Source: Bacteroidota bacterium (lineage in GTDB: Bacteria > Bacteroidota > Ignavibacteria > UBA10030 > UBA8401). From it: a stretch of DNA of 64,000 bases. Position 1 is the first letter of the stretch. Every line of letters begins with the position of its first letter. This document shows positions 16,465 through 63,151 of this stretch, piece by piece. The notes under the pieces are model-generated. The model saw only the letters and a program-made list of their open reading frames with translations. It had not been told where the DNA came from and ran no database searches. The stretch lies in contig DATJQP010000085.1 of assembly GCA_035505655.1 (NCBI GenBank), positions 6,395 to 70,394 on the forward strand, given 5' to 3'. The position numbers and the translations under genes are program-made.

Positions 16465-16474
16465 AAGGTTTGCC

Positions 16475-18697: not shown

Positions 18698-18713
18698 GCG
18701 AGAGATCGATTCC

Positions 18714-47985: not shown

Positions 47986-48121
47986 GCGGTCGGAGCCATT
48001 GTTGCCGATCGGTGATACTGATTCGTTCTCGTGGTGCCGGAAAGGGGCCGAAGAGGCCCCTCCGGCGCCGGGGAGCGTCACGCAAGGCATTCCTGATGGG
48101 CGCGAGCCCGGAGTTGATCGC

Positions 48122-49396
48122 ATGAGCCTTCGAATGTTGACAGCCCTCGGATTCCTCTTTGGAATCTCGGTCCTTCCCATGGCGGCCGGCACCGGGGCCG
48201 CGAAAGTCGATTCGATCGTCTTCACCGCCTCGAACCCCCTCGACCTGGCGCGACCGGACGAAGCTATTTCTATTCCGCTCTCGGTCCTCGCGAAACTCAG
48301 ACCCGGCTTCGACGCCGCGACATACGGAGTGTACGCCGGTCAGACCGAAATACCGAGCCAGCTCGACGACACGAACAGGGATGGTGCACCCGACCTGCTC
48401 ACCTTCGTTACCGACTTCGCTCCGCGGGAACGGAAAGAGCTTGTTCTCAGATGGGGTGGAATACCGGGTCCACAAAAGAGTTTTACGAAGCGCACACAAG
48501 CCGATCTCTCAATGAAAGAGGGCTACACTTTCGTGGATGGAAAATACACAAAGGGATACTATACGCGCATCGATTCGGTGAGAGTCCCGTCGGTGCACGT
48601 CGATCACGACGCCCTTTTTCAGCATGAAGGACCCGCATGGGAATCGGATCGGGTAGGATACAGGTTTTATCTCGACGCACGGAACCGAACGGACATCTAC
48701 GGCAAGAAGGTTCCGGAGATGGTTCTTCAGAGCGCAGGTGTCCACGACCTTGTCGCGGACAATAATGAGTCGTACGAGTCGATGCTTCCGTGGGGAATGG
48801 ACAATTTCAAGGTTGGCACGTCGCTCGGTATCGGATCGGTGGCTATGATGACATCAAAGGGGGTGGAGACCGTCTCTTGGGTGGACAGCGAATATTGTGT
48901 TATTGCCTCGAACGGTCCGGTTCGTTCCGAAGTGCAGGCCCGGTATTATGGATGGAAGGCCGGCGGCGGTACTTACGATCTTTTCTCGAGCTACTCCATC
49001 ACCGCGGGGAGCAGGCTCACGATGTGCGTAGAATCGGTAACGCCGTCTCCGTCAAACCTTTGCACCGGGATCGCCAAGCACGAGGATACCGACCTCATCG
49101 AGCCGCGTGATACCTCCGGAAAGGGGTGGAAGTACCTTGCACTTTACGGCAAGCAATCGCGCGCGGGGGACGATATGGGAATCGCGGTATTCTACAGAGG
49201 GACCGACAAGCTCAGCAGAGGAGCCGACAGCGTCAGCGAGTTCGTGACCCTTCGTCCGGAGAACGGAAGAGTACGCTATTACTTTGCCTCGACGTGGGTT
49301 CAGGAACTTCACGGTATTACTTCAGAGGGAGAGTTTCGCGCGTACCTCGATGAAGTGACAAGAAGGCTCGATGCCCCGATATCGCTCGGATTTTGA
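48122..49396 (+). CDS. DUF4861-like secreted protein (a family often adjacent to kduI/kduD in pectin loci).
   Basis: Signal MSLRMLTALGFLFGISVLPMAAG. The assignment rests on length (~425 aa), composition and position upstream of uxaC-kduI; the family call is from memory of DUF4861 features, not from an alignment. Confidence 0.4.
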   Translation: MSLRMLTALGFLFGISVLPMAAGTGAAKVDSIVFTASNPLDLARPDEAISIPLSVLAKLRPGFDAATYGVYAGQTEIPSQLDDTNRDGAPDLLTFVTDFAPRERKELVLRWGGIPGPQKSFTKRTQADLSMKEGYTFVDGKYTKGYYTRIDSVRVPSVHVDHDALFQHEGPAWESDRVGYRFYLDARNRTDIYGKKVPEMVLQSAGVHDLVADNNESYESMLPWGMDNFKVGTSLGIGSVAMMTSKGVETVSWVDSEYCVIASNGPVRSEVQARYYGWKAGGGTYDLFSSYSITAGSRLTMCVESVTPSPSNLCTGIAKHEDTDLIEPRDTSGKGWKYLALYGKQSRAGDDMGIAVFYRGTDKLSRGADSVSEFVTLRPENGRVRYYFASTWVQELHGITSEGEFRAYLDEVTRRLDAPISLGF

Positions 49397-49429: not shown

Positions 49430-50836
49430 ATGAAGAAGGAATTTGCTCACAAGAACTTTCTCCTGGGCTCGAAGCGCGCCGAGACCTTGTATCACGATTA
49501 TGCCGAATCGCTGCCGATCATCGACTATCATAACCATCTTCCCGCCAAGGAAGTGGCGGAGAATCGCACCTTTGAAAACCTGACACAGGTCTGGCTCGCC
49601 GGTGATCACTATAAATGGAGGGCGATGAGAACTTGCGGTGTCGATGAGCGGTATATTACTGGCGCTGCCGACGATTGGGAAAAATTCGCGAAGTGGGCGG
49701 AGACCGTCCCGAAGACGCTGAGGAATCCCCTCTATCATTGGACGCACCTTGAGTTGAAGAACCCGTTTGGCATTACCGACCGGCTCCTTAACCCTGCGAC
49801 CGCGAAAGGGATCTGGGAGGAATGCAACGCGCTTCTGCGGTTGCCTCAGTACGCCGCACGCGGTATCCTTGAAAAGATGAATGTGGAGGTCATCTGCACC
49901 ACTGACGACCCCGTCGACACGCTCGAATATCATACCGCCCTCGCTAATTCCGCCTCACGGGTCCGGATGTACCCGGCTTTCCGGCCCGATAAGGCCATTG
50001 CCGTCGAGAATCCGGAGGCATTCGTCCGATACGTCAAGACGCTGGCCCAAGCTTCAGACGTCCACATCACAACGTTTGACCGTTACCTCGAAGCCCTCCA
50101 TCGGCGGGCACAGTATTTCGCCGAGCATGGATGCAGGGTTTCCGACCACGCGCTGGTGACGATGGTGGCCGAAGAGTACACGGCGGCGAAGGTAAGGACG
50201 ATTTTTGCGAAGCTCCTCCGGAAGAAGGAAGTGAGCGCCGAGGAGGCTGCCGTTTTCAAGTCTGCGATGATGCATGAGCTCGCGACCATCAACTGGGAAC
50301 ACAAGTGGGTTCAGCAGTTTCACGTGGGCGCGCTGCGAAACGTCAACACCCGGATGCTTCAACTCCTGGGACCGGATACCGGTTACGATTCGATAGGGGA
50401 TGAACCGGTTGCCCGTCCGATGGCGAAGTTTCTTGACGGCCTCGAACGGAAGCAGAAGCTTACGAAGACAATCCTCTACAACCTCAATCCACGCGACAAC
50501 GAGCTCTACGCGACGATGATCGGCAATTTCCAGGACGGGGTCGCGCCGGGAAAGATGCAGTATGGCGCCGCATGGTGGTTCCTCGACCAAAGGGATGGGA
50601 TGACAAAGCAGCTCGAGGCACTTTCAAGCATGGGACTCCTCGGTCAGTTTGTGGGCATGCTCACCGATTCGCGAAGCTTCCTTTCATTTCCCCGGCATGA
50701 ATACTTCCGCCGCCTCATCTGCAACATTCTCGGGAACGAAATGGAACAGGGCATCCTCCCGGACGACATTGAGCTCGTCGGGGGTTTGGTGAAAGATGTT
50801 TGCTACTACAATGCGAAGAGATATTTTGAATTCTGA
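49430..50836 (+). CDS. uxaC: Uronate (glucuronate/galacturonate) isomerase.
   Basis: Close match to UxaC along the whole length: 'FLLGSKRAETLYHDYAESLPIIDYHNHLPAKEVAENRTFENLTQVWLAGDHYKWRAMRTCGV...'. 468 aa. Confidence 0.92.
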   Translation: MKKEFAHKNFLLGSKRAETLYHDYAESLPIIDYHNHLPAKEVAENRTFENLTQVWLAGDHYKWRAMRTCGVDERYITGAADDWEKFAKWAETVPKTLRNPLYHWTHLELKNPFGITDRLLNPATAKGIWEECNALLRLPQYAARGILEKMNVEVICTTDDPVDTLEYHTALANSASRVRMYPAFRPDKAIAVENPEAFVRYVKTLAQASDVHITTFDRYLEALHRRAQYFAEHGCRVSDHALVTMVAEEYTAAKVRTIFAKLLRKKEVSAEEAAVFKSAMMHELATINWEHKWVQQFHVGALRNVNTRMLQLLGPDTGYDSIGDEPVARPMAKFLDGLERKQKLTKTILYNLNPRDNELYATMIGNFQDGVAPGKMQYGAAWWFLDQRDGMTKQLEALSSMGLLGQFVGMLTDSRSFLSFPRHEYFRRLICNILGNEMEQGILPDDIELVGGLVKDVCYYNAKRYFEF

Positions 50837-50897
50837 CCCGATGTTCAGTGCGAGCAGCTCTCGTTCAATCGTAACACCTTCTCGGCAATCTGCTGGC

Positions 50898-50931
50898 ACG
50901 GAATCTGTCGAGCAGAGAAGTCCGTTTTTTC
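50898..50931 (+). terminator. Weak intrinsic-terminator-like element after uxaC: ACGGA-N18-TCCGT followed by T6.
   Basis: Stem 50898-50902 / 50921-50925, then TTTTTT 50925-50930. Confidence 0.3.
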
Positions 50932-51003
50932 GTACCTTACAGGTTCGCCGCTCATTTCACATGACCTCGTGAGCGGCCAAAAAGAAGAAAGCTTGAGATA
51001 ACA

Positions 51004-51837
51004 ATGGAAGTCAGATACGCCCCCAACGATGAATCATACCAGCGGATGACGACGGCGGAGCTTCGCCGGGCGTTTGTCATCGATACTCTTTTCACCCCCG
51101 ATCGTGTGACGATGGTCTACTCGGATGTCGACCGAGTCATCGTCGGTTCGGCGGTTCCGACCGGGAAGCCATTGCTTCTCGAAGCATCCAGAAAAGAGAT
51201 GGCAGCCGACTTTTTCGCGGAGCGTCGCGAAGTCGGCATCATCAACATCGGAGAGGCGGGAAGCGTAAGCGTGGACGGGACAAAGTACGCCATGGCGTTC
51301 AAGGACGTTCTCTACGTCGGGAGGGGGGCGAAAAAGATCGAATGTGCCAGTGCCTCAAAGAAAGCTCCTGCGACCTTCTATTTTGTCTCGTACCCGTCTC
51401 ATGCATCTCATCCCGTGACTCACGCCTCGTTCGACCGGGCGCTGAAATCTCCCCTCGGCTCCTCTCACAACGCCAACGAGAGGACGATCTGCAAGTACAT
51501 TCACTCCGAAGGGATCAAAAGCAGCCAACTTGTCATGGGGCTCACAGAGTTGAAAGAGGGATCGGTCTGGAATACGATGCCGAGCCACACCCATCAGCGG
51601 CGGATGGAAGTCTATCTCTACATCGGCCTCGACGAAGATTCAATCGTCGTCCACCTTATGGGGAAACCGACCGAGACGCGGTCACTTGTCCTCAGGAACC
51701 GGCAAGCGGTGATCTCCCCCCCATGGTCGATTCATTCCGCCGCGGGAACAAGGAACTACACCTTCATCTGGGCGATGGGGGGAGAAAATCAGGAGTTTGG
51801 GGATATGGACCCGGTCTCAATGAAGGAACTCCTCTGA
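51004..51837 (+). CDS. kduI: 5-dehydro-4-deoxy-D-glucuronate isomerase.
   Basis: 'MEVRYAPNDESYQRMTTAELRRAFVIDTLFTPDRVTMVYSDVDRVIVGSAVP' parallels the KduI N-terminus. Cupin motifs are present. 277 aa. Confidence 0.9.
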   Translation: MEVRYAPNDESYQRMTTAELRRAFVIDTLFTPDRVTMVYSDVDRVIVGSAVPTGKPLLLEASRKEMAADFFAERREVGIINIGEAGSVSVDGTKYAMAFKDVLYVGRGAKKIECASASKKAPATFYFVSYPSHASHPVTHASFDRALKSPLGSSHNANERTICKYIHSEGIKSSQLVMGLTELKEGSVWNTMPSHTHQRRMEVYLYIGLDEDSIVVHLMGKPTETRSLVLRNRQAVISPPWSIHSAAGTRNYTFIWAMGGENQEFGDMDPVSMKELL

Positions 51838-51889
51838 CACGCCAAGGCCGGATTTTCGTTCTCTCTACCATCGAAACGAGACAGACACT

Positions 51890-53173
51890 ATGACCACAGA
51901 GACAACCGCCGCGGGACCCATATCCGGAAAAGTGGGTAACTACCGATGGACGATCTGTGCCCTCCTCTTTCTGGCTACGACCATCAACTACCTCGATCGG
52001 TCCGTCCTCGGAATTCTGGCGCCGACCCTCCAGAAGGAAATAGGGTGGACGCCGATTGAGTACGGCTACATCGGGACCGTGTTCACGGGAGCGTACGCGA
52101 TCGGTCTGGTGCTCTTCGGCCGTTTCGTGGACCGCTATGGGACAAAGCTCGGATATATTGTCTCGCTGACAGGCTGGAGCATCGCCGCGATGGGGCACGC
52201 ACTGGCCGCAAGCGTTGTGGGATTTGCGGTTGCGAGGGGATTCCTCGGCCTCAGCGAGGCCGGCAATTTTCCCACAGCGATCAAGGCAGTGGCGGAGTGG
52301 TTCCCGAAAAAGGAGCGCGCCCTCGCCACCGGAATCTTCAACTCGGGGGCGAATATCGGGGCAGTGGTCGCACCCGCGGTCGTTCCCTGGTTGACCCTGA
52401 CATACGGCTGGCAGTCCGCGTTCATTGCGACAGGAGCGATCGGTTTGTTGTGGTTGTTTCTCTGGTCGGCATTATATGAACTGCCGGAGAACTCTAAGAA
52501 GGTTTCACCGGCAGAACTCGCCCACATCCTCAGCGACCCCGACACTTCGACACCCGTCAAAGTTCCCTGGCTGGTACTGCTTCGCTACCGGCAGACGTGG
52601 GCGTTTGTGATCGGGAAGTTCCTGACCGATCCGGTCTGGTGGTTCTATATTTACTGGCTCGGCCTCTTCCTCAACAACAATTTCGGCGTAAGCCTGGGCC
52701 AGATCGGCGCCCCACTTATCGTTATCTACACCATAACGAGCATCGGAAGCATCGGCGGCGGCTACCTCTCAGGGGCGCTGATCAATCGGGGCATGCCGGT
52801 CGACCGGGCGAGACGGATAACGATGCTAGTCTTCGCGATTCTGGTCGTCCCGGTGGTCACAGCAGGGGGGATCGGAAATATGTGGATGGCCGTGGGGATC
52901 ATCGGGCTGGCGACCGCCGCGCATCAAGGTTGGTCGGCGAACATCTTCACGATCGTCTCCGATATGTTCCCAAAGAAAGTAGTCGGATCGGTGACGGGGC
53001 TCGGAGCGTTTGCGGGCGCGCTGGGAGGGATGATCTTCCTGGCGCTGGCAGGTTACATTGTCGAGGCGACCGGCTCCTATATTATGCTCTTCGCCATTTG
53101 CGGGTCGGCGTACCTCATTGCGTTGGCTCTCATGACGCTCCTCACCGCAAAAGCAAAACCGGTGAATTTGTAG
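51890..53173 (+). CDS. exuT: MFS transporter, hexuronate transporter ExuT-like.
   Basis: 12 predicted transmembrane segments. 'NYRWTICALLFLATTINYLDRSVLGILAPTLQKEIGWTPIEYGYI...GRFVDRYGTKLGYIVSL...AEWFPKKERALATGIFNSGANIGAVVAP' resembles ExuT/ACS-family MFS transporters. Confidence 0.8.
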   Translation: MTTETTAAGPISGKVGNYRWTICALLFLATTINYLDRSVLGILAPTLQKEIGWTPIEYGYIGTVFTGAYAIGLVLFGRFVDRYGTKLGYIVSLTGWSIAAMGHALAASVVGFAVARGFLGLSEAGNFPTAIKAVAEWFPKKERALATGIFNSGANIGAVVAPAVVPWLTLTYGWQSAFIATGAIGLLWLFLWSALYELPENSKKVSPAELAHILSDPDTSTPVKVPWLVLLRYRQTWAFVIGKFLTDPVWWFYIYWLGLFLNNNFGVSLGQIGAPLIVIYTITSIGSIGGGYLSGALINRGMPVDRARRITMLVFAILVVPVVTAGGIGNMWMAVGIIGLATAAHQGWSANIFTIVSDMFPKKVVGSVTGLGAFAGALGGMIFLALAGYIVEATGSYIMLFAICGSAYLIALALMTLLTAKAKPVNL

Positions 53174-53222
53174 CGGAAAGATTTCGAAGAACCACGACAG
53201 ACCCAGAACGGAAGAAGATACA

Positions 53223-54005
53223 ATGTCATACATCGAAAACCTCTTTGGACTAAAAGGAAAAGTGGCCGTTGTGATCGGCGGAAGCGGCGTCCTCGGCGGG
53301 AGCATGGCTCGTGCTCTTGCGGATGCGGGGGCGAAGGTTGCCGTCGGCTACCATCACAATTCCGCGGGCGCGGCGAATGTCGTTGAAGCAATAGCGGCGT
53401 CTGGAGGTATCGGGAAGGAGGTCCATGTGGACACGTCGTCGTCTTCCGCCGTCGAACAGGGTAAAGACGAGATTGTTTCCCTCTGGGGAAAGGTCGATAT
53501 CGTCGTCAACGCTCCGGGGGTCAATTCCCCCACTCCTGTCTTTGACATCCCCGACGAAGAGTGGGATCGAATCCTTGACACCAACCTCAAAGGCGTCTTC
53601 TCATCCTGCCGCGTTTTTGCGAAGCAGATGATCGCCCAGAAGAGCGGCGGGAGCATCATCAACATCTCTTCCGTCTCCTCGGAGCTGCCGCTTTCGAAGG
53701 TCTTCACTTATTCAATTTCCAAGGCGGGCGTCAACAATATGACCCGTTTCCTTGCGAAAGAGTGGGCTCCCCAGAACATCAGGGTCAACGCGATCATGCC
53801 CGGCTTCTTTCCCGCCGAGCAGAACAGGAAAATTCTCACCGAGGAGCGACGAAAATCGATCTTCGCCCATACTCCCATGGGACGCTACGGCGAACCGCAG
53901 GAGCTTTCGGGGGCGCTGCTTTGGCTCGCCTCGGATCGTGCCTCGTCCTTCGTCACCGGGGCAGTCGTCGCCGTGGACGGCGGATTCACCTCGATGACAA
54001 TATGA
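53223..54005 (+). CDS. SDR-family oxidoreductase, a candidate fructuronate/tagaturonate reductase (short-chain-type UxuB/UxaB analogue). The substrate is not determinable from sequence.
   Basis: Rossmann motif 'GKVAVVIGGSGVLGGSMARALADAGAKV', 'NAPG', and catalytic 'SSVSS...YSISKAGVNNMTRFLAKEW' (S-Y-K). It is distinct from the kduD ortholog at 61629. Confidence 0.7.
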   Translation: MSYIENLFGLKGKVAVVIGGSGVLGGSMARALADAGAKVAVGYHHNSAGAANVVEAIAASGGIGKEVHVDTSSSSAVEQGKDEIVSLWGKVDIVVNAPGVNSPTPVFDIPDEEWDRILDTNLKGVFSSCRVFAKQMIAQKSGGSIINISSVSSELPLSKVFTYSISKAGVNNMTRFLAKEWAPQNIRVNAIMPGFFPAEQNRKILTEERRKSIFAHTPMGRYGEPQELSGALLWLASDRASSFVTGAVVAVDGGFTSMTI

Positions 54006-54063
54006 TGCGGCTATATTGCGAGTGACCCGGCAAAGGAAGTAAAGAACGGATGGTAGAATCGTA

Positions 54064-55224
54064 ATGCGTGTCGTTGTCGACAAGAAGAATCCCCTGGTGG
54101 CCGAAGCCTTTCGCCAGTTTGGAGAAGTCCGTGAATGCGCCACGCGCGATATCACTCGTGAGACGGTGCAGGATGCCGACATCATCATCATCCGGTCGGA
54201 GACAAAGGTCACGAAAGAGCTTCTCGACGGAACTTCGGTAAAGTTCGTCGGGACCGCGACGATTGGCACCGACCACGTGGACCTCGAGTATCTCCAGTCT
54301 CATGGTATCGGCTTCGCAAGCGCGCCGGGGTCGAACGCCAACTCGGTGGCGGAGTACATTGTTTCGGCGATTCTTACGCTCACCTGCCGCAAGGGCCTCC
54401 GGCTTTCCGACCTGACACTCGGTGTTGTCGGTGTGGGCAACGTGGGGAGCAAGGTTGTCCGGAATGCAAGAGCGCTTGGAATGAAGGTATTACAGAATGA
54501 CCCTCCGCTCGCGCGCACTACCGGAGATTCCGGGTTTCTTCCCCTTGAGAGACTTCTCGATGCCGACATCCTCACGCTCCACGTTCCGCTGACAAAGAAG
54601 GGAACCGACCCGACGTATCACCTCATCGGGCGTGAGTTCCTCTCGAAGTTGAAGAGCACCGCCGTCGTCATCAACACCTCCCGCGGACCGGTCGTCGATG
54701 GAGCCGCATTGAAGGAGGCGCTTGGCGAACGGCGTCTCGGTGGTGCAGTCCTCGACGTGTGGGAAGGGGAGCCGGTGATTGACGCCGAACTCCTTGCGAA
54801 GGTTGACATCGGCACGCCTCATATCGCCGGATACTCGTACGACGGCAAGCTCGCTGCGGTGAGGATGACATACGAAGCTGCATGCGGACATTTCGGACAG
54901 AAGAAGTCGTGGACTCCCGGAAGTTCCCAGCCCGCCCCCGCAGTCGGACGGATCAGTCTCCGGAGGGAAGAACGATCGACGGAGGAGACGCTCAAGAGTG
55001 TCGTCGCCCGGTGTTACGATATCCTCCGCGACGACGCCGGCTTGCGCCCGCTCATCCAAACGCCGGCTGAAGAGCGCCGCACATTCTTTGCGCGGCTCCG
55101 TTCGGAGTACGGCATACGACGGGAATTCCATAACACGGTTGTGGAACTCCCGATTGCGATGGAAGTCCTGGGTGAACAGCTTCGCGTGATAGGTTTCCAA
55201 ATAGCATGGAAGGATGGAGAGTAG
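54064..55224 (+). CDS. D-isomer-specific 2-hydroxyacid dehydrogenase, PdxB-like (erythronate-4-phosphate dehydrogenase family).
   Basis: N-terminus 'MRVVVDKKNPLVAEAFRQFGEVRECATRDITRETVQDADIIIIRSETKVTKELLDGTSVKFVGTATIGTDHVDLEYLQSHGIGFASAPGSNANSVAEY' is co-linear with E. coli PdxB ('MKILVDENMPYA...GEV...VRSVTKV...LL.G..IKFVGTATAGTDHVD...GIGFSAAPGCNA'). NAD motif 'GVVGVGNVGSKV'. It has a C-terminal extension typical of PdxB. Confidence 0.7.
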   Translation: MRVVVDKKNPLVAEAFRQFGEVRECATRDITRETVQDADIIIIRSETKVTKELLDGTSVKFVGTATIGTDHVDLEYLQSHGIGFASAPGSNANSVAEYIVSAILTLTCRKGLRLSDLTLGVVGVGNVGSKVVRNARALGMKVLQNDPPLARTTGDSGFLPLERLLDADILTLHVPLTKKGTDPTYHLIGREFLSKLKSTAVVINTSRGPVVDGAALKEALGERRLGGAVLDVWEGEPVIDAELLAKVDIGTPHIAGYSYDGKLAAVRMTYEAACGHFGQKKSWTPGSSQPAPAVGRISLRREERSTEETLKSVVARCYDILRDDAGLRPLIQTPAEERRTFFARLRSEYGIRREFHNTVVELPIAMEVLGEQLRVIGFQIAWKDGE

Positions 55225-55229
55225 GGAGC

Positions 55230-56477
55230 ATGGTCATCGGCAACGGAGCAATTTCGCGCGAAAGAACGGAAGAAGAGGTCTATGCGTTGAGCGAACGGGC
55301 ATTGGCGCAACTCCCGCTCGCGGGAAAACGGGTTCTTGTCATCATACCTGATACGACTCGCCATGCCGAGTTGCCCCTCTTCTTCAAGACGCTGGCCCGT
55401 ATCCTCGGCGGGAAAGTAGCGGCCCTCGATTATCTCGTCGCGACCGGCACTCACCACCCCCTTGGCATCGATGTCCTGTTGAAGCACGTGGGGATCACGG
55501 AGGAAGAGTACAAATCCCGACACACCCGAACGAAGTTCTTCAATCACCTCCACACGGACCGGAGCCAGCTCCGCACGATCGGCAGGATCCCGGCACGGGA
55601 GATTTCTGAGATCTCGCAGGGACTCTACGCCGAAGACGTCGATGTAACGATCAACAAACTCATCTTCGAGTACGACCAGCTAATCCTCGTGAGCCCGGTC
55701 GTCCCCCACGAAACGGTCGGCTTCGCGGGCGGGAACAAGTATTTCTTCCCCGGAATCGGCGGCGAAGAGATCATCCAGACATTTCACTGGATCGGCGCTT
55801 TGCTCACCAACCCGGTGGTCAACGGCGTGAAGGATACCCTCGTGAGGCGGGTGATCAACAGAGGGGCCACCTTCATCACCGTCCCAAGGATCTGCTTTGC
55901 GTTTGTCGTTGACGACCACAAAGTCTCATCCCTCTACATCGGATCTCCGGAAGAGGCGTGGGAGAAGGCGGCGGATGACTCTGCGAAAGTCCACATCAAA
56001 TACCTCGACCACCCGGTGAAGACCGTCCTGGGGATCGCGCCGTCGATCTACGAAGATATCTGGGTTGCCGGGAAGGTAATGTACAAGCACGAGCCAGTCA
56101 TCGCGGATGGCGGTGAGGTGATCATCTACGCGCCGCATATTGACGAGATTTCCTACTCGCACGGGAAGGAGATCCGCAAGGTCGGATACCACGTGCGCGA
56201 CTATTTCGTGCGCCAATGGAAGAAATTCGAGGGGACGTCGAGGCTCATCCTTGCCCATTCGACGAACGTACGGGGAATCGGGAGTTTTGAAAACGGAGTC
56301 GAGAAGCCGCGGATCAACGTAACGCTTGCAACGGCAATCCCGGAGTCCGAGTGCCGCGCGGTGAACCTCGGTTACCGCGACTACAGGACGATAGACATTG
56401 AGGAGTGGAAGTCACGGCAGAACGGTGATCTCCTCGTCGTCGAAAATGCCGGACAGCTTCTCTACCGTCTTCGTTGA
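55230..56477 (+). CDS. LarA-family (DUF2088) nickel-pincer-nucleotide-dependent alpha-hydroxyacid racemase/epimerase homolog.
   Basis: Key LarA motifs are conserved and co-linear with L. plantarum LarA: 'VLVIIPDTTRHAELP' (LarA 'IVIISSDHTRPVP'), 'YLVATGTHHP' (LarA 'ILVATGFHRP'), and 'HETVGFAGGNKYFFPGIG' (LarA 'ESHFFAGFSGGRKSVLPGIA', where K is the NPN-tethering Lys184). SD GGGAG upstream of the ATG at 55230; the upstream ATG at 55206 overlaps the previous gene. Confidence 0.75.
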   Translation: MVIGNGAISRERTEEEVYALSERALAQLPLAGKRVLVIIPDTTRHAELPLFFKTLARILGGKVAALDYLVATGTHHPLGIDVLLKHVGITEEEYKSRHTRTKFFNHLHTDRSQLRTIGRIPAREISEISQGLYAEDVDVTINKLIFEYDQLILVSPVVPHETVGFAGGNKYFFPGIGGEEIIQTFHWIGALLTNPVVNGVKDTLVRRVINRGATFITVPRICFAFVVDDHKVSSLYIGSPEEAWEKAADDSAKVHIKYLDHPVKTVLGIAPSIYEDIWVAGKVMYKHEPVIADGGEVIIYAPHIDEISYSHGKEIRKVGYHVRDYFVRQWKKFEGTSRLILAHSTNVRGIGSFENGVEKPRINVTLATAIPESECRAVNLGYRDYRTIDIEEWKSRQNGDLLVVENAGQLLYRLR

Positions 56478-56521
56478 AGCCCGTGCGCTGAGTTCTGAAA
56501 TCTCTCACGATCGAACAAACT

Positions 56522-57607
56522 ATGGCACTGAAATTCAAGACCGCTCAGGAAACTGAATTCGACCTTCTCGCCCTCGGTGAGTGCATGATCCGCCTCAGCC
56601 CTCCCGGCCATCAGCGCATCGAGCTGACTCCGGTGTTCGAGGCGTATGCCGGCGGAGGCGAGTACAATGTCGCCTATGCGCTCTCCCGGTACGGGATGAG
56701 GACAGCGTGGGTCTCACGGCTTGTCGACAATCCTCTCGGCGCATTCATCCGGAATCATGCCCGGGCGAGCGGCATGGACATCAGCGAGGTCGTACGGGTT
56801 CCGTATGACGGTTCCGGGCGTTCGGACAGGATCGGTCTCAACTTTACGGAGGTTGGCATCGGCGTCCGCGCGAGCGTGACAATGTACGACAGGGGGCATA
56901 CGGCAATCGCCCATATGACTCCTTCGGATGTCGATTGGAAGCGGCTCTTTTCCGAACGGAAGACTCGCTGGTTCCACACTGGCGGGATTTTTACGGCTCT
57001 CAGCGACGGTTGCGCCGAGGTGGCCTTCGAGTCGATGAAGGCTGCCCACGAAGCCGGGACGGTTGTCAGCTACGACCTTAACTTCCGGAGCAAGCTCTGG
57101 TCGAGCACAAAAGCCATCGAAGTGACGAAACGGCTTGTACCGTTCATCGACGTCCTCATCGGCAACGAAGAGGACTTTCAGAAGGTCCTCGGGTTTGAGG
57201 TTGAAGGGACGGACGATAAGCTCGTATCGCTCCCGATCGAAGGCTACAAGAAGATGGTGAAGCGGGTCGTCGAGACGTTCCCGAATGTCAAGGCGGTCGG
57301 TACGACGCTCCGGGAGGTCGTCAGCGGCCTCGTCAACAACTGGTCCGCAATCATGTATTACGACGGCGTCTTTTACGAGTCGAGGAAGTTCGCGAACCTT
57401 GAGATCGAAGACCGGGTAGGAGGCGGGGACGGTTTCTGCAGCGGCTTCGTCTACGGCCTCCTCCACGGGATGCCTCCGCAGGAGTGCGTTGAAATGGGGG
57501 CTGCCCATGGAGCGCTCCTTCAAAGCACGCGCGGAGATACGAGCATGGTTACGATGGAGGAGATCCGCCACGTCATGAAAGGCGGCAGTGCGAGGATCAA
57601 ACGATAG
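56522..57607 (+). CDS. kdgK: PfkB-family sugar-acid kinase, probable 2-dehydro-3-deoxygluconokinase.
   Basis: Ribokinase-like fold. 'GGGEYNVAYALSRYG', di-Gly switch, and C-terminal 'DRVGGGDGFCSGFVYGLL' anion-hole/ATP motif. Located in the KDG operon context. Confidence 0.75.
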   Translation: MALKFKTAQETEFDLLALGECMIRLSPPGHQRIELTPVFEAYAGGGEYNVAYALSRYGMRTAWVSRLVDNPLGAFIRNHARASGMDISEVVRVPYDGSGRSDRIGLNFTEVGIGVRASVTMYDRGHTAIAHMTPSDVDWKRLFSERKTRWFHTGGIFTALSDGCAEVAFESMKAAHEAGTVVSYDLNFRSKLWSSTKAIEVTKRLVPFIDVLIGNEEDFQKVLGFEVEGTDDKLVSLPIEGYKKMVKRVVETFPNVKAVGTTLREVVSGLVNNWSAIMYYDGVFYESRKFANLEIEDRVGGGDGFCSGFVYGLLHGMPPQECVEMGAAHGALLQSTRGDTSMVTMEEIRHVMKGGSARIKR

Positions 57608-57697
57608 GATCCTCCTCGAACGACCCGGAGGGCAATGGATAGCGCCGAGCCCGGGATGTGTTGAAAGGGCTATCCATTAACAGGAAGATAGGGTAGA

Positions 57698-58951
57698 ATG
57701 AAGATAGAAAAATACTCGATCGGTATTGGAGATCGGTTTGGTCACCAGGGTGTCGCTCAGCTCGATGCATTTGTCAAGGCGCGGAAACTCGGCGTCGATG
57801 TTGTCCCGGTGTGGAACAAATCCAACCGCGAGCACATTCTCATCGGGACCCAGGCTCGGGACACGAGGCACGAAGCGGACGGAGCAGTGAAAAAACTCGG
57901 CTGGAGCTCATTGTACTACGTCGATGCCGATCACATCGGACTCAAGACCGTTGACAGTTTCATCGAACCGAGCGACTATTTCACGCTCGACGTCGCCGAT
58001 TTCATCGGGATGGATCCGGACCCGGGGGACCTCTCGGAATTCGTGAAGTTCTGCGCGAAGTATGTCGGAACTCTCAGTATCCCGGGCGTTGCAGGAGGGA
58101 TCGAGGTGGGGAAGGAGACAATTTCCGCCGTGGGCCGAAAATACCTTACCGCGGCGAAAGAGGCGGGAAAGATCTACCGCCACATCGCTTCGGTGAAGGG
58201 AAAGGAAGGGTTTGTCACGGAGGTTTCGACGGACGAGACGAACACTCCGCAGACTCCTGTGGAGCTCCTCTTCGTCCTCGCCGCGCTTGCGATGGAAAAG
58301 GTGCCGCTCCAGACCGTGGCACCGAAGTTCACTGGGCAATTTCTCAAGGGGGTTGACTACGTCGGCGACCTTGGGCAGTTCGCGAAGGAGTTTGATGAGG
58401 ATCTCGCCGTCATCAGGTATGCCGTGGCCGAGTTCGGGCTTCCACAGACCCTGAAGATCAGCGTTCATTCGGGAAGCGACAAGTTCTCGATTTATCCGAT
58501 CATCCATAAATCGATGAAGAAACTGGATGCGGGCATTCATCTGAAGACGGCCGGTACCACCTGGCTCGAAGAAGTGATCGGTCTTGCGAAATCCGGCGGA
58601 GAAGGACTCCGGATCGCAAAGGAGATCTACGCCCAATCGTACCTCCGCATTGAAGAGCTCTCGAAGCCCTATCTCACCGTCATCGACATTCGTGAGACGG
58701 AGCTGCCGAAGCCCGCGGAAGTCAACAAGTGGGGAAGCGCCGAGTATGTCCGCGCCCTCAAACACGACCGGAACGATCTCCTCTACAACCGGTCGTTTCG
58801 TCAGCTCGTTCACATCGGCTTTAAGGTAGCGGCGGAGATGGGAGAGCGGTATCTCGAGGCTCTCGAGAAGTTTGCGCCGGCGATTGCCGAGGGGGTGACG
58901 GAAAACATCTATGAACGACACCTGCGACCGATATTCCTCGGAAGCGACTGA
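57698..58951 (+). CDS. GatZ/KbaZ-like TIM-barrel protein, a candidate tagaturonate/fructuronate epimerase (UxaE-like).
   Basis: 417 aa, no signal peptide. 'YYVDADHIGLKTVD' aligns with the GatZ 'LILGGDHLGPN' metal-binding region. Sits between two kdgK paralogs in the hexuronate operon. Assignment is by weak motif resemblance and context only. Confidence 0.4.
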   Translation: MKIEKYSIGIGDRFGHQGVAQLDAFVKARKLGVDVVPVWNKSNREHILIGTQARDTRHEADGAVKKLGWSSLYYVDADHIGLKTVDSFIEPSDYFTLDVADFIGMDPDPGDLSEFVKFCAKYVGTLSIPGVAGGIEVGKETISAVGRKYLTAAKEAGKIYRHIASVKGKEGFVTEVSTDETNTPQTPVELLFVLAALAMEKVPLQTVAPKFTGQFLKGVDYVGDLGQFAKEFDEDLAVIRYAVAEFGLPQTLKISVHSGSDKFSIYPIIHKSMKKLDAGIHLKTAGTTWLEEVIGLAKSGGEGLRIAKEIYAQSYLRIEELSKPYLTVIDIRETELPKPAEVNKWGSAEYVRALKHDRNDLLYNRSFRQLVHIGFKVAAEMGERYLEALEKFAPAIAEGVTENIYERHLRPIFLGSD

Positions 58952-59003
58952 TTCCGCGGGAGCCGGTTCGGGTTATCACACTGATTATGCGAAGGAGTAC
59001 TCG

Positions 59004-60086
59004 ATGAGCAACGCGTTGAAGATTCAACCCTCCGGGGCGCTTGACCTGGTTTCGCTCGGAGCCCTGGTGCACAGGCTGGATCCGGGAATTATCCCATTCA
59101 GGAAGGCAACAGAATGTCACATCCACGTCAGCGGCGGCGAGTTCAATGTGGCGGCAAATCTTGCCGATTGTTTCCGGCTCAACACCGGAATCGCTTCCGC
59201 GATGGTCGACTACCCGATCGGCGATCTCATTGCCGAGAGAGTGAGGGCGATGGGAGTGAAACCATTCTACAAACGATTCAAGCACAACGGTGTCAACGGT
59301 CCGAACATGGCAACTGTCTACAGCGACCGGGGCCAGGGGATGAGAGCCCCCGTTGTCTTTTACAATCGTTCGAATGAAGCGGCCGCCCAGTTGAAACCCG
59401 GAGATTTCGACTGGGGTGCAATCTTTGCGGGAGGAGTACGATGGTTCCACAGCGGCGGGATCTTCGCGGCGCTTTCACAAACGACGGGCGAAGTCATCAT
59501 CGAGGGGATGAAGGCCGCGAAGAAGGCGGGAGCGATCGTCAGCTTTGATCTCAACTTTCGCGAGAAGCTCTGGAATATCTGGGGAGGCGAGAAGAAGGCG
59601 GTGGAGGTCATCGCGAGGATTGTCGAAAACGCGGACGTCCTCGTCGGCAACGAGGAGGATCTTCAGAAAGGCCTGGGGATTCCCGGACCCGAGGTTGCGG
59701 CAAAATCAAAGCTCGACCCGAGCGCGTTCTTTGGGATGATCGACAAGGTCGTTGCGAAACATCCGCAGGTGAAGGTTGTGGCGACGACACTGAGGGAAGT
59801 CCGCTCCACGAACCACCACAGTTGGAGCGCGGTGGCCTGGATCGACGGAAAAACGTACGTCGCTCCGACCGCTGAACTTGACGTTCTCGACAGGGTCGGA
59901 GGGGGTGATGGGTTCGCGAGCGGCTTCTTTTACGGTCTCCTGACGGGCGAGCAGCCCGAGGAGGCCGTGAAGCTCGGATGGGCTCACGGTGCACTTCTCA
60001 CGACATTCCCGGGCGATACAACCATGGCGACGGTCGAGCAGGTTCGCGCTTTTGCCAGGGGCGGATCCGCGCGCATTCAGCGGTAA
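59004..60086 (+). CDS. Second PfkB-family sugar-acid kinase (a paralog of 56522-57607; both end in 'GGSARI(K/Q)R'). KDG kinase or another sugar-acid kinase.
   Basis: SD GAAGGAG upstream of the ATG at 59004. 'DLVSLGALVHRLDP...GGEFNVAANLA', 'DRVGGGDGFASGFFYGLL'. About 35-40% identity to the first kinase by eye. Confidence 0.75.
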   Translation: MSNALKIQPSGALDLVSLGALVHRLDPGIIPFRKATECHIHVSGGEFNVAANLADCFRLNTGIASAMVDYPIGDLIAERVRAMGVKPFYKRFKHNGVNGPNMATVYSDRGQGMRAPVVFYNRSNEAAAQLKPGDFDWGAIFAGGVRWFHSGGIFAALSQTTGEVIIEGMKAAKKAGAIVSFDLNFREKLWNIWGGEKKAVEVIARIVENADVLVGNEEDLQKGLGIPGPEVAAKSKLDPSAFFGMIDKVVAKHPQVKVVATTLREVRSTNHHSWSAVAWIDGKTYVAPTAELDVLDRVGGGDGFASGFFYGLLTGEQPEEAVKLGWAHGALLTTFPGDTTMATVEQVRAFARGGSARIQR

Positions 60087-60137
60087 ACTTCTGTCCACTT
60101 ATCATCCGAAAAACAACAGCAAGAGAAAGTTATCAGC

Positions 60138-61592
60138 ATGAATCAGAAAGCAGATATGGGGCTTGTGGGACTCGCCGTCATGGGAGAGAATCTGGTCCTT
60201 AATGTTGAGAGCCGCGGGTTCAGCGTCGCGGTGTTCAACCGAACGGTCGAAAAAGTCGACAATTTCGTCAACGGCAGGGCGAAGGGGAAGAAGATCATCG
60301 GCACGCATTCGATTGCGGAGCTCGCCGGGGCGCTGAAAACACCCCGGAAGATTATGCTCATGGTCAAGGCCGGCAAACCGGTCGATGAATTCATCGAGCA
60401 GATCATTCCCCACCTCGAGAAAGGGGATATCATCATTGACGGAGGGAACTCGCATTTCCCCGACACTATTCGAAGAACAAAGTATCTCGAATCGAAAGGA
60501 CTCCTCTACATCGGAACAGGCGTCTCGGGAGGAGAAGAAGGGGCGCTCAAGGGACCGTCGATCATGCCCGGCGGTTCTCCGGCGGCGTGGCCGCACGTGA
60601 AGCCCATCTTCCAGTCGATCGCCGCAAAGGTCGCCGACGGTACGCCCTGCTGCGATTGGGTCGGAGAGAACGGGGCCGGACATTTCGTGAAAATGGTCCA
60701 CAACGGGATCGAGTACGGTGACATGCAGCTCATCTGCGAAGTCTACCAGATTATGAAGGAGCTTCTCGGCATGTCTGCCCCCGAGATGCACAAGGTTTTC
60801 GAGGAGTGGAATCGCGGCGAGCTCGACAGCTACCTCATTGAAATCACGAGGGACATCCTCGCTTTCAAGGATGCGGATGGGGCGCCGCTCGTGGACAAGA
60901 TCCTCGACACGGCGGGACAGAAAGGGACGGGGAAGTGGACGAGTGTAGCCTCCCTTGACCTCGGGATCCCCCTCACCATGATCAGCGAGGCGGTCTACGG
61001 GCGATGTCTTTCCGCGGCCAAGGAAGACAGAGTCGAGGCCTCGAAGATTCTCAGAGGCCCCCAGCCGAAATTTACGGGAGACCGCAAGGCGTTCCTTGCC
61101 GACCTCGAAAAAGCGCTCTATGCTTCGAAGATCGTCTCCTACGCGCAGGGTTATGTGCTTCTTAGGGCTGCCGCGGAGGAGTTCAAATGGAATCTGAACT
61201 ACGGCGGCATTGCTCTCCTCTGGCGCGGCGGATGCATCATCCGATCCAGGTTCCTTGGGAGGATCAAAGAAGCCTTCGACAAGAATCCATCGCTCTCTAA
61301 CCTGCTTCTCGACCCCTTCTTCAAGGACACAGTCGAAGGATCACAGGAGGCATGGCGTCGCGTCCTCTCGACAGCGATTCTCAACGGAGTCTGGGTCCCG
61401 GCAATGGCGACGGCTCTCAATTATTTCGACGGCTACCGGAATGCACGCCTTCCGGCCAATCTTCTCCAGGCCCAGCGCGATTTCTTTGGGGCGCACATGT
61501 ACGAGCGGGTCGACAAGCCGCGGGGAGAGTTCTTCCATACGAACTGGACGGGACGCGGGGGTCATACCGCTTCTTCGACCTACGTCGTCTGA
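60138..61592 (+). CDS. gnd: 6-phosphogluconate dehydrogenase (decarboxylating).
   Basis: Near full-length co-linearity with Gnd: 'GLVGLAVMGENLVLNVESRGFSVAVFNRT', 'IIDGGNSHFPDTIRR', 'GTGVSGGEEGALKGPSIMPGG', 'HFVKMVHNGIEYGDMQLI', 'LLWRGGCIIRSRFL', 'QAQRDFFGAHMYERVDKPRGEFFHTNW'. Confidence 0.92.
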   Translation: MNQKADMGLVGLAVMGENLVLNVESRGFSVAVFNRTVEKVDNFVNGRAKGKKIIGTHSIAELAGALKTPRKIMLMVKAGKPVDEFIEQIIPHLEKGDIIIDGGNSHFPDTIRRTKYLESKGLLYIGTGVSGGEEGALKGPSIMPGGSPAAWPHVKPIFQSIAAKVADGTPCCDWVGENGAGHFVKMVHNGIEYGDMQLICEVYQIMKELLGMSAPEMHKVFEEWNRGELDSYLIEITRDILAFKDADGAPLVDKILDTAGQKGTGKWTSVASLDLGIPLTMISEAVYGRCLSAAKEDRVEASKILRGPQPKFTGDRKAFLADLEKALYASKIVSYAQGYVLLRAAAEEFKWNLNYGGIALLWRGGCIIRSRFLGRIKEAFDKNPSLSNLLLDPFFKDTVEGSQEAWRRVLSTAILNGVWVPAMATALNYFDGYRNARLPANLLQAQRDFFGAHMYERVDKPRGEFFHTNWTGRGGHTASSTYVV

Positions 61593-61628
61593 GGAACTTT
61601 GCCCGGACGCTATCCATAAAATATACAT

Positions 61629-62402
61629 TTGTTCAATGAGGATGTCGTGAGCAACTTATTCAATATCACAGGCAAGACTGCGATTGTCACGGGAGGGAGT
61701 ACCGGGCTCGGGGCAGGGATGGCGCTTGCTCTCGCGGAGGCGGGAGCCGATCTCGTCCTCGTCGACCGGACCGGCTGCGAAGAAACAGCTGACAAAGTCC
61801 GCGCATTCGGTCGGAAGGCGATCAACATCGTCGCCGACCTCTCGACGATCGACCCGATCGAAAGAATTATGCGGCAGACCATCCAGGAGTACGGGAAGGT
61901 CGACATCCTCGTGAACAACGCGGGGATCATCCGACGGACTCCGGCGGCCGATTTCTCTGAAAAGGATTGGGACGAGGTCATGGCGATCAATTCCAAGACC
62001 GTCTTTTTCCTTTGCCAGGCTGCCGGGAGGGATATGTTGAAGCGAAAGTACGGGAAGATCGTCAACATCTCATCCCTCCTTGCCTTTCAGGGGGGAATCC
62101 TTGTCCCGTCGTACGCCGCTAGCAAAGCTGCGGTGGCACAGGTGACCAAAGCGCTCGCGAACGAGTGGGCGAGCCACGGTATCACGATCAACGCGATCGC
62201 TCCCGGCTATATGGCGACGAACAATACGAAGCCTCTCCGGGAGGATGCCGCCCGATCGAAATCGATTCTCGACCGTATTCCGGCCGGAAGATGGGGATTG
62301 CCCTCAGATCTGGGCGGAGCCGTTGTCTTCCTCGCGTCGCCGGCGTCGGACTATGTGAACGGCCACGTGCTCGTCGTGGACGGTGGCTGGCTGGCCCGGT
62401 AG
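61629..62402 (+). CDS. kduD: 2-dehydro-3-deoxy-D-gluconate 5-dehydrogenase.
   Basis: Very close to E. coli KduD over the full length: 'VNNAGIIRR...DFSEKDWDEVMAIN...NISSLLAFQGGILVPSYAASKAAV...LANEWA...ITINAIAPGYMATNNT...ILDRIPAGRWGLPSDL...VFLAS.ASDYVNGH...VDGGWLAR'. A possible GTG start lies at 61648. Confidence 0.9.
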   Translation: MFNEDVVSNLFNITGKTAIVTGGSTGLGAGMALALAEAGADLVLVDRTGCEETADKVRAFGRKAINIVADLSTIDPIERIMRQTIQEYGKVDILVNNAGIIRRTPAADFSEKDWDEVMAINSKTVFFLCQAAGRDMLKRKYGKIVNISSLLAFQGGILVPSYAASKAAVAQVTKALANEWASHGITINAIAPGYMATNNTKPLREDAARSKSILDRIPAGRWGLPSDLGGAVVFLASPASDYVNGHVLVVDGGWLAR

Positions 62403-62494
62403 CTTTCGCCTCGGGTCTCGGCGTTTCCATCGCACGGACCGGTGCATCATGGCCCGATGCAGCGATTCTCAACCAGGAACTTTGAAGGATCTCT

Positions 62495-63151
62495 ATGTCA
62501 AGGAAAGAAGTCCTCGCGCGAATTCTCGAAACCGGCGCCGTTGCCGTTATCAGGATGAAGGATCCGAAGCGGCTTTCGAAGGTTGTCGAGGCGATAAGAG
62601 CGGGGGGAGTGAAATCGATCGAGATTACGATGACGGTTCCCGGAGCGGTCGAGATCATTCGCGAGATGGCACGATCCGCCCCACCGGATATTCTTATTGG
62701 TGCAGGGACGGTGACGGAGAAATCGGGAGCGATTGCGGTGATCGAGGCCGGGGCGAACTTTGTCGTCGGGCCGGCCCTCAATCTCGACATCCTCGCCGTC
62801 TGCCGCGAAAGAGATGTTGTCTGCATGCCCGGTTGCTTCTCACCGACTGAAATCCTCACCGGATGGAATGCCGGGGCCGACGTCATCAAGGTGTTTCCGG
62901 CCACTTCGCTGGGCCCCAGGTATTTCAAAGACATCGCGGGGCCATTTCCTCAGATCCGTCTCATGCCCACCGGCGGCGTAACCGTGGACAACGTCGGCGA
63001 GTGGGTGGCAGCGGGGGCGGTTGCGGTTGGAATCGGAAGCGACCTGCTCGACAAGAAGGCGATCGAGGAAGAGAATTATGCCCTCCTTACCGAACGGGCA
63101 GCGCGTCTTTCGAAAAACTTCCTCGATGCCAGGTCGAAGGTAAAGAAATAG
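62495..63151 (+). CDS. eda: 2-dehydro-3-deoxy-phosphogluconate (KDPG) / KHG aldolase.
   Basis: 'LETGAVAVIRMKDPKRLSKVVEAIRAGGVKSIEITMTVPGAVEIIREM...IGAGTV...AIEAGANFVVGPALN...MPGCFSPTEI..AGADVIKVFPA...PTGGV'. The Schiff-base Lys context is conserved (GADVIKVFP). Confidence 0.88.
   Translation: MSRKEVLARILETGAVAVIRMKDPKRLSKVVEAIRAGGVKSIEITMTVPGAVEIIREMARSAPPDILIGAGTVTEKSGAIAVIEAGANFVVGPALNLDILAVCRERDVVCMPGCFSPTEILTGWNAGADVIKVFPATSLGPRYFKDIAGPFPQIRLMPTGGVTVDNVGEWVAAGAVAVGIGSDLLDKKAIEEENYALLTERAARLSKNFLDARSKVKK

Follow-up and report, generated by a model that had tools for sequence, protein, structure and literature searches.

A hexuronate operon without dehydratase genes in a Bacteroidota pectin locus and its predicted route through gluconate and 6-phosphogluconate

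The canonical Ashwell pathway of hexuronate breakdown runs from UxaC through UxaB and UxaA on one side and through UxuB and UxuA to KdgK and Eda on the other. A different route, made up of UxaC, UxaE, a short-chain reductase (SDR), GntE (TM0442), GntK and Gnd, was proposed for Thermotoga maritima by Rodionova et al. in 2012, as that work is summarised in PMC6978723 and PMC7583248. A further variant is the isomerase/phosphoketolase hybrid pathway of Lactobacillus suebicus (Valk et al. 2020), in which extracts phosphorylate mannonate and then epimerise 6-phosphomannonate, and whose redox-neutrality was stressed as relevant to fermenters (PMC6978723). Here we analyse a 64 kb stretch of DNA (the window) from a metagenome-assembled genome (MAG) of a Bacteroidota bacterium (class Ignavibacteria; assembly GCA_035505655.1, contig DATJQP010000085.1) and in it a hexuronate operon of twelve co-directional genes on the plus strand, at positions 49430-63151 and with intergenic gaps of 5-167 nt. 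An earlier note on this DNA had suggested a variant pathway for the operon. It left unmentioned the genes for a PdxB-like dehydrogenase, a LarA-like epimerase, Gnd, an MFS transporter and Eda, and since the first three were overlooked it had no path from mannonate to central metabolism.

We consider it probable that the operon serves two branches, with the saturated uronates leaving via gluconate and 6-phosphogluconate. In the first branch UxaC would isomerise galacturonate or glucuronate to tagaturonate or fructuronate, a UxaE-family enzyme would convert tagaturonate to fructuronate, and a short-chain reductase, SDR1, would reduce fructuronate to D-mannonate. A GntE-type LarA-family enzyme would then invert C2 to give D-gluconate, the kinase PfkB2 would convert this to 6-phosphogluconate, and Gnd would release ribulose-5-phosphate and CO2. 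This redox-neutral series would stand in for the altronate and mannonate dehydratase steps. The second branch would start from the 4,5-unsaturated uronate produced by lyase and GH88/105 action, with KduI and KduD leading to 2-keto-3-deoxygluconate (KDG), a second kinase, PfkB1, acting as KdgK to yield 2-keto-3-deoxy-6-phosphogluconate (KDPG), and Eda splitting the latter into pyruvate and glyceraldehyde-3-phosphate. The scheme is built on family memberships, conserved catalytic residues and conserved synteny, all of which are observed.

With the Ashwell pathway the locus shares entry through UxaC and, for unsaturated uronates, an arm of KduI, KduD, KdgK and Eda, but it lacks the long-chain reductases and both dehydratases, and its saturated uronates are predicted to exit via 6-phosphogluconate with loss of the carboxyl carbon as CO2. 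As in the Thermotoga scheme, an isomerase, UxaE and an SDR would lead to mannonate and a LarA-family 2-epimerase to gluconate, followed by a kinase and Gnd. The two differ in that the kinase here is of the PfkB family and that of the Thermotoga group-20 context an FGGY-type sugar kinase (COG1070), and in that the window has a PdxB-like gene 5 nt from the epimerase gene, a UxaE without the N-terminal domain, a host that is a Bacteroidota pectin degrader with type IX secretion and TonB receptors, and no dehydratase genes alongside the operon. Thermotoga also has UxuA. What the locus has in common with L. suebicus is the line from galacturonate over mannonate and 6-phosphogluconate to Gnd, without dehydratases and as a redox-neutral entry to the pentose phosphates; there the kinase acts first and the candidate kinases are homologs of known gluconate kinase genes, whereas in the present case synteny speaks for the epimerase first. 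In Pseudomonas, the kgu operon combines the PfkB kinase KguK with the 2-keto-6-phosphogluconate reductase KguD, a member of the D-2-hydroxyacid dehydrogenase family. The window likewise places a PfkB-family sugar-acid kinase and an enzyme of that dehydrogenase family upstream of 6-phosphogluconate, but no enzyme of the operon is predicted to make 2-ketogluconate, and the dehydrogenase here is of the PdxB subfamily and has its link with LarA, not with the kinase. Finally, the context reported for LarA group 18, the 'putative hexonate epimerase' of Desguin et al. (2020), agrees with that of the operon (SDR, 6-phosphogluconate dehydrogenase, ribokinase-family kinase, MFS transporter, UxaC and KduI), but the window LarA is not a member of this group, and group-18 proteins replace the window type in otherwise equivalent operons.

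The synteny was assessed on a total of about 170 loci. The LarA homolog had at least 581 relatives in a scan of one genome per species, and the window proteins served as queries to annotate the ORFs of 80 LarA-anchored loci, each from a different GTDB species; 80 further loci were obtained from a PfkB2-anchored metagenome scan, the contigs of which carry no taxonomy. PfkB1-anchored look-ups added, among others, L170, L173-175 and L178. The LarA loci are spread over Bacteroidota, Ignavibacteria, Fidelibacterota, KSB1, Gemmatimonadota, Myxococcota-like, Chloroflexota, Acidobacteriota, Planctomycetota, Hydrogenedentota, Nitrospirota and Verrucomicrobiota genomes. Forty LarA loci have 5 kb or more of sequence to either side (fully flanked), and in these the neighbours within 7 kb were most often SDR (32), followed by Gnd (22), UxaE (17), a HAD-like hydrolase (16), the PdxB-like protein (15), UxaC (13) and PfkB (12). 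The order of all twelve genes is repeated in loci L006 and L008, and a minimal operon, UxaC-SDR-PdxB-like-LarA-UxaE-PfkB2-Gnd with no KduI, KduD, PfkB1 or Eda, is found in L004 and L007. Three adjacencies recur, namely PfkB2 with Gnd, PfkB1 with Eda and the PdxB-like gene with LarA. The earlier suggestion of a variant pathway that dispenses with dehydratases and long-chain reductases holds up, while the order kinase-epimerase-kinase, which had been singled out with it, has no standing as a unit: relatives vary between LarA-UxaE-PfkB2-Gnd (L004) and PfkB2-Gnd-PfkB1-Eda (L170, L173).

Pfam scans, with the large ORFs tested across the 64 kb window, yielded no UxaA, no UxuA and no UxaB or UxuB of the mannitol-dehydrogenase type, in line with the absences listed in the earlier note. 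The earlier note had counted canonical dehydratase genes just beyond the window as evidence against its reading; UxaA, UxuA and UxaB are all missing from the 10 kb 3' of Eda in a second assembly (L086), where an apiosidase-like gene is followed by lipid-synthesis genes. A scan for promoters and terminators between 47.5 and 64 kb gave counts close to the shuffled expectation and no informative site, with a sigma-70 model that is unsuited to Bacteroidota. One might argue that the operon is a mosaic without any special pathway, with canonical dehydratases and reductases encoded elsewhere and LarA, the PdxB-like protein and Gnd merely co-located and engaged in unrelated metabolism. The absence of uxaA, uxuA and uxaB rests on one contig of a MAG, which would suit this explanation, as would the occurrence of the LarA clade in non-uronate contexts (beside a pyrophosphate-dependent phosphofructokinase, a HAD protein and Gnd in L060 from Hydrogenedentota, and beside a type VI secretion system in L180). 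We nevertheless hold it to be highly improbable, given that the set, although reordered, is found again together with UxaC, UxaE, KduI and MFS in Bacteroidota, Ignavibacteria, Myxococcota-like, Chloroflexota and other MAGs, that a non-orthologous LarA substitutes in equivalent context, and that the gaps in the window are short, with a terminator signal not above chance.

The first enzyme of the branch for saturated uronates, UxaC (glucuronate/galacturonate isomerase, 49430-50836, plus strand), matches PF02614 with 676 bits and NF002794 with 624 bits (cutoff 387). The gene at 57698-58951 (plus strand), for which a UxaE-type product had been proposed, matches PF16257 with 172.8 bits (cutoff 27.1, E 1.4e-50) over profile positions 79-431 of 475, with 9lhu and 6il9 as PDB matches. 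All of 12 orthologs keep E45 and D78, which align with Glu126 and Asp159 of ClUxaE; in a profile of the 12 orthologs they fall on RE and DgDH of 6il9 after a numbering offset of one residue. Glu126 and Asp159 are the catalytic residues of C. laeviribosi UxaE (PMC11194214). The motifs HSGSDKF, KTAGT and EVSxDE are kept as well. With 417 aa the protein is shorter than the crystallised enzymes (490-507 aa): the N-terminal ~90 residues are gone, and the match begins at chain residue 93 or 112. The conserved Glu/Asp pair and the profile match point to a UxaE-type tagaturonate/fructuronate epimerase. SDR1 (53223-54005, plus strand), which had already been put in the place of the reductase, has NF006132 (D-mannonate oxidoreductase) as its best NCBIfam model and scores far under the cutoffs of the KduD models. 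Its second-best PDB match is 1vl8, which we take to be Thermotoga TM0441, the SDR adjoining GntE. SDR1 is the likely fructuronate (or tagaturonate) reductase and would yield D-mannonate.

The next step is assigned to the LarA-family nickel-pincer-nucleotide (NPN) epimerase of the GntE branch (55230-56477, plus strand; PF09861, 73 bits), whose ATG at 55230 lies 5 nt past the stop codon of the PdxB-like gene. Among solved structures it is nearest to 4nar of Thermotoga, its best PDB match (E 7e-67 over residues 40-422; 300 bits when a family profile is used) and presumably GntE2. In LarA of L. plantarum we take Lys184 to tether the NPN, His200 to be the nickel ligand, His108 and His174 to be catalytic and Arg75 and Lys298 to bind the carboxylate. 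Counterparts of D72, R75, H108, H174, K184, H200 and K298 are all kept in the window protein, and 13 family members without exception have its D41, R44, H75, H160, K170, H186 and K282; in the alignment these residues match the LarA motifs SDHTRP, ATGxH and HxxxGFSGGxK and the His and Lys that follow. GntE2 of Thermotoga was shown by Desguin et al. to be an NPN-dependent D-mannonate/D-gluconate 2-epimerase (PMC7583248), and the GntE branch of the superfamily was defined in a survey of 2024 (PMC11770544). The signature of the hexonate-type groups 18-20, a Glu in the loop that follows the catalytic His and a Trp in helix alpha-11 (PMC7583248), is present in the window homolog as PHE(T/A)VGF and D-I-W-V-A-G-K, where 4nar has PHESTGF and EVWTAGK. 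The conserved residues and this signature suggest that the enzyme converts D-mannonate to D-gluconate.

Membership of group 18 was considered and rejected: the window protein scores 167.5 bits with NF052594 (cutoff 500) and is ~30% identical to true members, which reach 647-662 bits in L088, L149 and L152. It is part of a sister clade of group 18, one that is nearer to GntE2. The LarA homologs of L167 and L176 were placed in the group-18 clade by identity and context. Elsewhere a group-18 LarA fills an otherwise equivalent context (SDR-PfkB2-LarA-Gnd), and this non-orthologous displacement is a strong argument that the context defines the function.

The two paralogous PfkB kinases flanking the UxaE gene, noticed earlier, are PfkB1 (56522-57607, plus strand, PF00294) and PfkB2 (59004-60086, plus strand, 360 aa). 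The start of PfkB2 was corrected from 58911 to the ATG at 59004, so that the gene does not overlap the UxaE-like gene. With 43% identity between them, and a clean split into two orthogroups (540-770 bits inside each type, about 250-280 bits between types), a recent tandem duplication is ruled out and the two are old paralogs. Both orthogroups are remarkably conserved: in different phyla, aligned PfkB2 orthologs show 65-90% identity to the protein of the window, and the figure for PfkB1 relatives is 83-90%. PfkB1 scores 234 bits against Thermotoga KdgK (2afb, its best PDB match) compared to 160 bits for PfkB2, and 339 bits against the model of a KDPG-aldolase/kinase fusion compared to 245 bits. 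On the curated KdgK equivalogs PfkB1 scores 202 (NF041332, cutoff 440) and 27 (NF052444, cutoff 400). It lies immediately 5' of Eda in L170, L171, L173-175 and L021, and L178 shows the order classical GntK-PfkB1-...-Eda. PfkB2 keeps other company: of 94 PfkB2 genes, 39 have Gnd as their immediate same-strand neighbour, 18 a LarA homolog, 9 an SDR and none Eda. In loci with both kinases it is PfkB1 that goes with Eda. The order TRAP-SDR-LarA-DUF4861-PfkB2-Gnd-PfkB1-Eda in L170 and L173-175 contains both pairings side by side. We infer that PfkB1 is the KdgK (2-keto-3-deoxygluconate kinase), and most likely each of the kinases has a branch of its own. Since PfkB2 sits beside Gnd and never beside Eda, it most likely makes 6-phosphogluconate, and would do so directly, as a gluconate (hexonate) 6-kinase on a PfkB scaffold.

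Gnd itself (60138-61592, plus strand), a decarboxylating NADP-dependent 6-phosphogluconate dehydrogenase, is recognised by TIGR00873 (762 bits, cutoff 427), PF00393 and PF03446. Gnd-PfkB2 pairs without LarA within 5-10 kb are frequent (L094, L107, L110, L120, L126, L144, L162), and they favour the order in which the epimerase acts before the kinase; a transketolase gene is present on some of these contigs. The reverse order, as in L. suebicus, would have a PfkB kinase phosphorylate D-mannonate first and the LarA homolog act as a 6-phosphomannonate 2-epimerase; the PdxB-like enzyme, whose build suits a phosphorylated D-2-hydroxy acid, would then work on the phosphorylated pool, for example between 6-phosphogluconate and 2-keto-6-phosphogluconate, or salvage a leaked keto-intermediate. 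A LarA homolog is indeed abundant in the L. suebicus proteome (PMC6978723), and the characterised GntEs have a high Km for free mannonate, 17 and 120 mM (PMC7583248), but GntE2 turns free mannonate over at 197 s-1. That the word 'phospho' is absent from the 2024 survey of the LarA superfamily (PMC11770544) also speaks for this reading, which we regard as unlikely: the pairs of PfkB2 and Gnd without LarA fit a kinase that already yields 6-phosphogluconate. For the same reason PfkB2 as the missing mannonate kinase was down-weighted.

Some further observations concern the Gnd-PfkB2 pair. In L094, L120, L126, L133 and L144 a hydrolase of ~180-225 aa, with a likeness to KdsC-type HAD phosphatases judged by eye, directly follows it (~1 kb 3' of PfkB2), and in six other metagenome contigs the pair is followed by a transketolase. 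This suggests that Gnd-PfkB2 makes up an independent module with a link to the pentose phosphates.

The gene upstream of LarA (54064-55224, plus strand) encodes a PdxB-like D-2-hydroxyacid dehydrogenase with a DUF3410 dimerisation domain (PF11890, 42 bits). It scores 426 bits with NF001309, narrowly under the cutoff of 434, and 283 bits with Salmonella PdxB (3oet). Aligned to 3oet it displays the motifs IIIRSETKV, NDPPLA, PHIAGYS and IRREF and keeps Arg44-Ser45, the Asp-Pro-Pro loop, the Tyr of HIAGY (Tyr258) and the Arg of RRE (Arg346 equivalent), which in PdxB bind the substrate phosphate (PMC6303947). In all 21 LarA-anchored loci that have a PdxB-like gene it directly adjoins LarA and is co-directional with it, 19 times upstream and twice downstream. 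The link is reciprocal, in that two ~55% identical PdxB-like homologs, selected solely for sitting on long contigs, again adjoin a LarA of the window's clade, one in L182 with the order GntR-MFS-UxaC-SDR-Gnd-PdxB-like-LarA and the other in L180/181 as a bare pair. A second PdxB-like clade (B) accompanies the group-18 LarA in L088, L167 and L176. An exception is L172 with KduD-like-PdxB-like-PfkB1 and no LarA. A literature search for a link between LarA and PdxB gave nothing relevant.

The PdxB-like protein could be a genuine 4-phosphoerythronate dehydrogenase that clears 4-phosphoerythronate (4PE), a potent inhibitor of Gnd that builds up when gluconate and the pentose-phosphate pathway are the way in for carbon, in a form of metabolite proofreading, with its product also feeding the synthesis of pyridoxal phosphate. 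The 283 bits to Salmonella PdxB are about what is expected of a Bacteroidota ortholog, the substrate-binding residues are all kept, and with 464 bits the clade-B partner in L088 lies above the NCBIfam PdxB cutoff of 434. 4PE inhibits GndA/GntZ, gluconate is toxic to B. subtilis without the 4PE phosphatase (PMC6449344), and HAD-type phosphatases are frequent neighbours, in 26 of the 80 LarA loci. The tight link, however, is to LarA rather than to Gnd: the presence of Gnd does not predict that of the PdxB-like gene (Fisher p = 0.33), in L180 and L181 the PdxB-like-LarA pair is by itself and has no Gnd with it, and of the 80 PfkB2-Gnd loci only 1 has a PdxB-like gene. Because of this LarA-centred linkage the proofreading role fits poorly; we keep it as a rival, though a doubtful one. 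In L180 (7001-9469) and L181 (4046-6820) the pair forms an isolated trio with an 87-aa ORF, with no sugar-acid genes near and a type VI secretion locus adjoining; the LarA call of L180 is shorter, with a weak F_bP_aldolase match, and may be disrupted or mis-called.

An attractive idea is that the PdxB-like enzyme might act on 6-phospho-hexonates or on the keto-intermediate of LarA. The retention of all phosphate-binding residues and the adjacency to LarA in 21 of 21 cases would also suit the kinase-first order, but the gene is missing from 25 of the 40 fully flanked LarA loci (~60%). That the PdxB-like enzyme and the GntE-type LarA form an obligate, co-evolving two-enzyme unit on phosphorylated hexonates is rather unlikely in our estimate. 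If it were true, the PdxB clade would have a new job, either as a 6-phospho-hexonate / 2-keto-6-phosphogluconate oxidoreductase or as a helper that sustains the hidden redox cycle of the nickel-pincer enzyme, and the PdxB-like clade would be widely mis-annotated as vitamin-B6 biosynthesis.

Several points weigh against the proposed flow of saturated uronates through gluconate. The PdxB-like enzyme is the most tightly linked neighbour of LarA, yet it has no step in the scheme. The division of labour between the kinases is not clean, as PfkB1 is the sole kinase beside LarA and Gnd in L002, L011 and L047, where the pairing of PfkB1 with Eda is missing. PfkB2 has the PfkB/ribokinase fold and belongs to neither of the known gluconokinase folds (GntK P-loop/SKI and FGGY), and in the literature searched we found no description of a PfkB-type gluconokinase. 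SDR1 stays just under the cutoff of NF006132 (265 versus 281 bits), and the LarA cofactor genes larB, larC and larE are absent from the 64 kb window. Dehydratase genes may also lie elsewhere in the genome, and this would make the gluconate route a parallel one and not a replacement. Substrates throughout, the order of epimerase and kinase and the allocation of the kinases to the branches are our reading of families and gene neighbourhoods, and on balance these still favour the two-branch scheme.

The remaining genes of the operon belong to uptake and to the branch for unsaturated uronates. KduI (5-dehydro-4-deoxy-D-glucuronate isomerase, 51004-51837, plus strand) scores 408 bits with NF002091 (cutoff 250), and KduD (2-dehydro-3-deoxy-D-gluconate 5-dehydrogenase, the second SDR of the cluster, 61647-62402, plus strand) 373 bits with TIGR01832 (cutoff 339); the ORF of the latter opens at 61629, and the probable start is the GTG at 61647. 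The presence of uxaC, kduI and kduD on the plus strand, as read earlier, is thereby borne out by curated NCBIfam cutoffs. Eda, a KDPG/KHG aldolase (62495-63151, plus strand; PF01081, 160 bits; TIGR01182, 186 bits, cutoff 156), is the last gene of the cluster and is followed 3' by a convergent apiosidase-like gene. The MFS transporter (51890-53173, plus strand) matches PF07690 with 216 bits and, in the sugar-acid (D-galactonate transporter) subfamily, TIGR00893 with 244 bits, under the cutoff of 395; it is probably an ExuT-like hexuronate importer. A DUF4861 protein (PF16153, 288 bits; 47999-49396, plus strand) is encoded 33 nt 5' of uxaC. The family recurs in uronate operons, between LarA and PfkB2 in L170 (3960-5258) and L173 (3223-4371), and also near PfkB2 in L088, L089, L149 and L163.

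The twelve genes close a pectin-utilisation locus that takes up the 64 kb, nearly all of it on the plus strand, and they form the cytoplasmic end of this large locus. It comprises two GH28 enzymes, a GH88/105-type hydrolase, two pectinesterases and a PL9-like lyase, together with TonB-dependent receptors, a LacI-family regulator and many proteins with a type-IX secretion tail. Further upstream, at 13492-16464, 16265-18697 and 18648-21223, an outer-membrane protein that has a CarboxypepD_reg domain but no recognisable TonB barrel and an 810-aa protein without a Pfam match are encoded, and the same stretch carries PorV-like and FadL-like proteins, an unusual outer-membrane uptake set replacing a SusC/SusD pair. 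Five ORFs of 170-270 aa at 1-4300 and 9781-10464 have no Pfam match.

Some of the collected loci have a composition of their own. In a Hydrogenedentota MAG (L060, 6098-15162) the order is SDR-HAD-like hydrolase-PdxB-like-LarA-PPi-phosphofructokinase-like (PRK14072)-glycosyltransferase-like-Gnd, with no UxaC or UxaE. Operons of this type are also found in L032, L056, L068, L070 and others, from Hydrogenedentota, Nitrospirota and other MAGs; a HAD-like protein neighbours LarA in 26 of the 80 loci and a phosphofructokinase-like protein in 19. This has the look of a separate module for sugar acids or sugar phosphates, one that is undescribed. L167 (2289-14322) and L176 (1333-13348) share the order UxaC-MFS-SDR-PfkB2-x-x-H+PPase-PfkB1-LarA(group 18)-PdxB-like-Gnd-UxaE, in which a membrane H+-pyrophosphatase (PF03030) and two proteins without a Pfam match lie between PfkB2 and PfkB1. 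In a KSB1 MAG (L002, 7781-8418) a PhdYeFM/PIN toxin-antitoxin pair is inserted between SDR and Gnd of an SDR-Gnd-LarA-PfkB1-HAD cluster.

The type of pathway is already in the literature, and what is of interest here is the PfkB-type kinase in the position of the gluconate kinase, the pair of PdxB-like enzyme and LarA, and the breadth of occurrence in uncultured phyla. A literature search for hexuronate, LarA and 6-phosphogluconate dehydrogenase together gave nothing relevant. A redox-neutral entry of galacturonate into the pentose phosphates would be of interest for engineering the fermentation of pectin-rich waste. The loci offer candidate genes for a PfkB-type gluconate or mannonate kinase, for the kinase and epimerase activities of L. 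suebicus, and for a PdxB-like enzyme that accompanies nickel-pincer epimerases. Soils, sediments and guts hold pectin and other polymers of uronic acids as major sources of carbon, and metabolic reconstructions from MAGs score the use of hexuronates by UxaA, UxaB and UxuA. Judging from this locus and over 150 related ones, a redox-neutral route via gluconate and 6-phosphogluconate that needs no dehydratase is widespread across many phyla. Organisms with such loci would wrongly be scored as having no such pathway, and the annotation of their kinases reads 'KDG kinase' or 'sugar kinase'.

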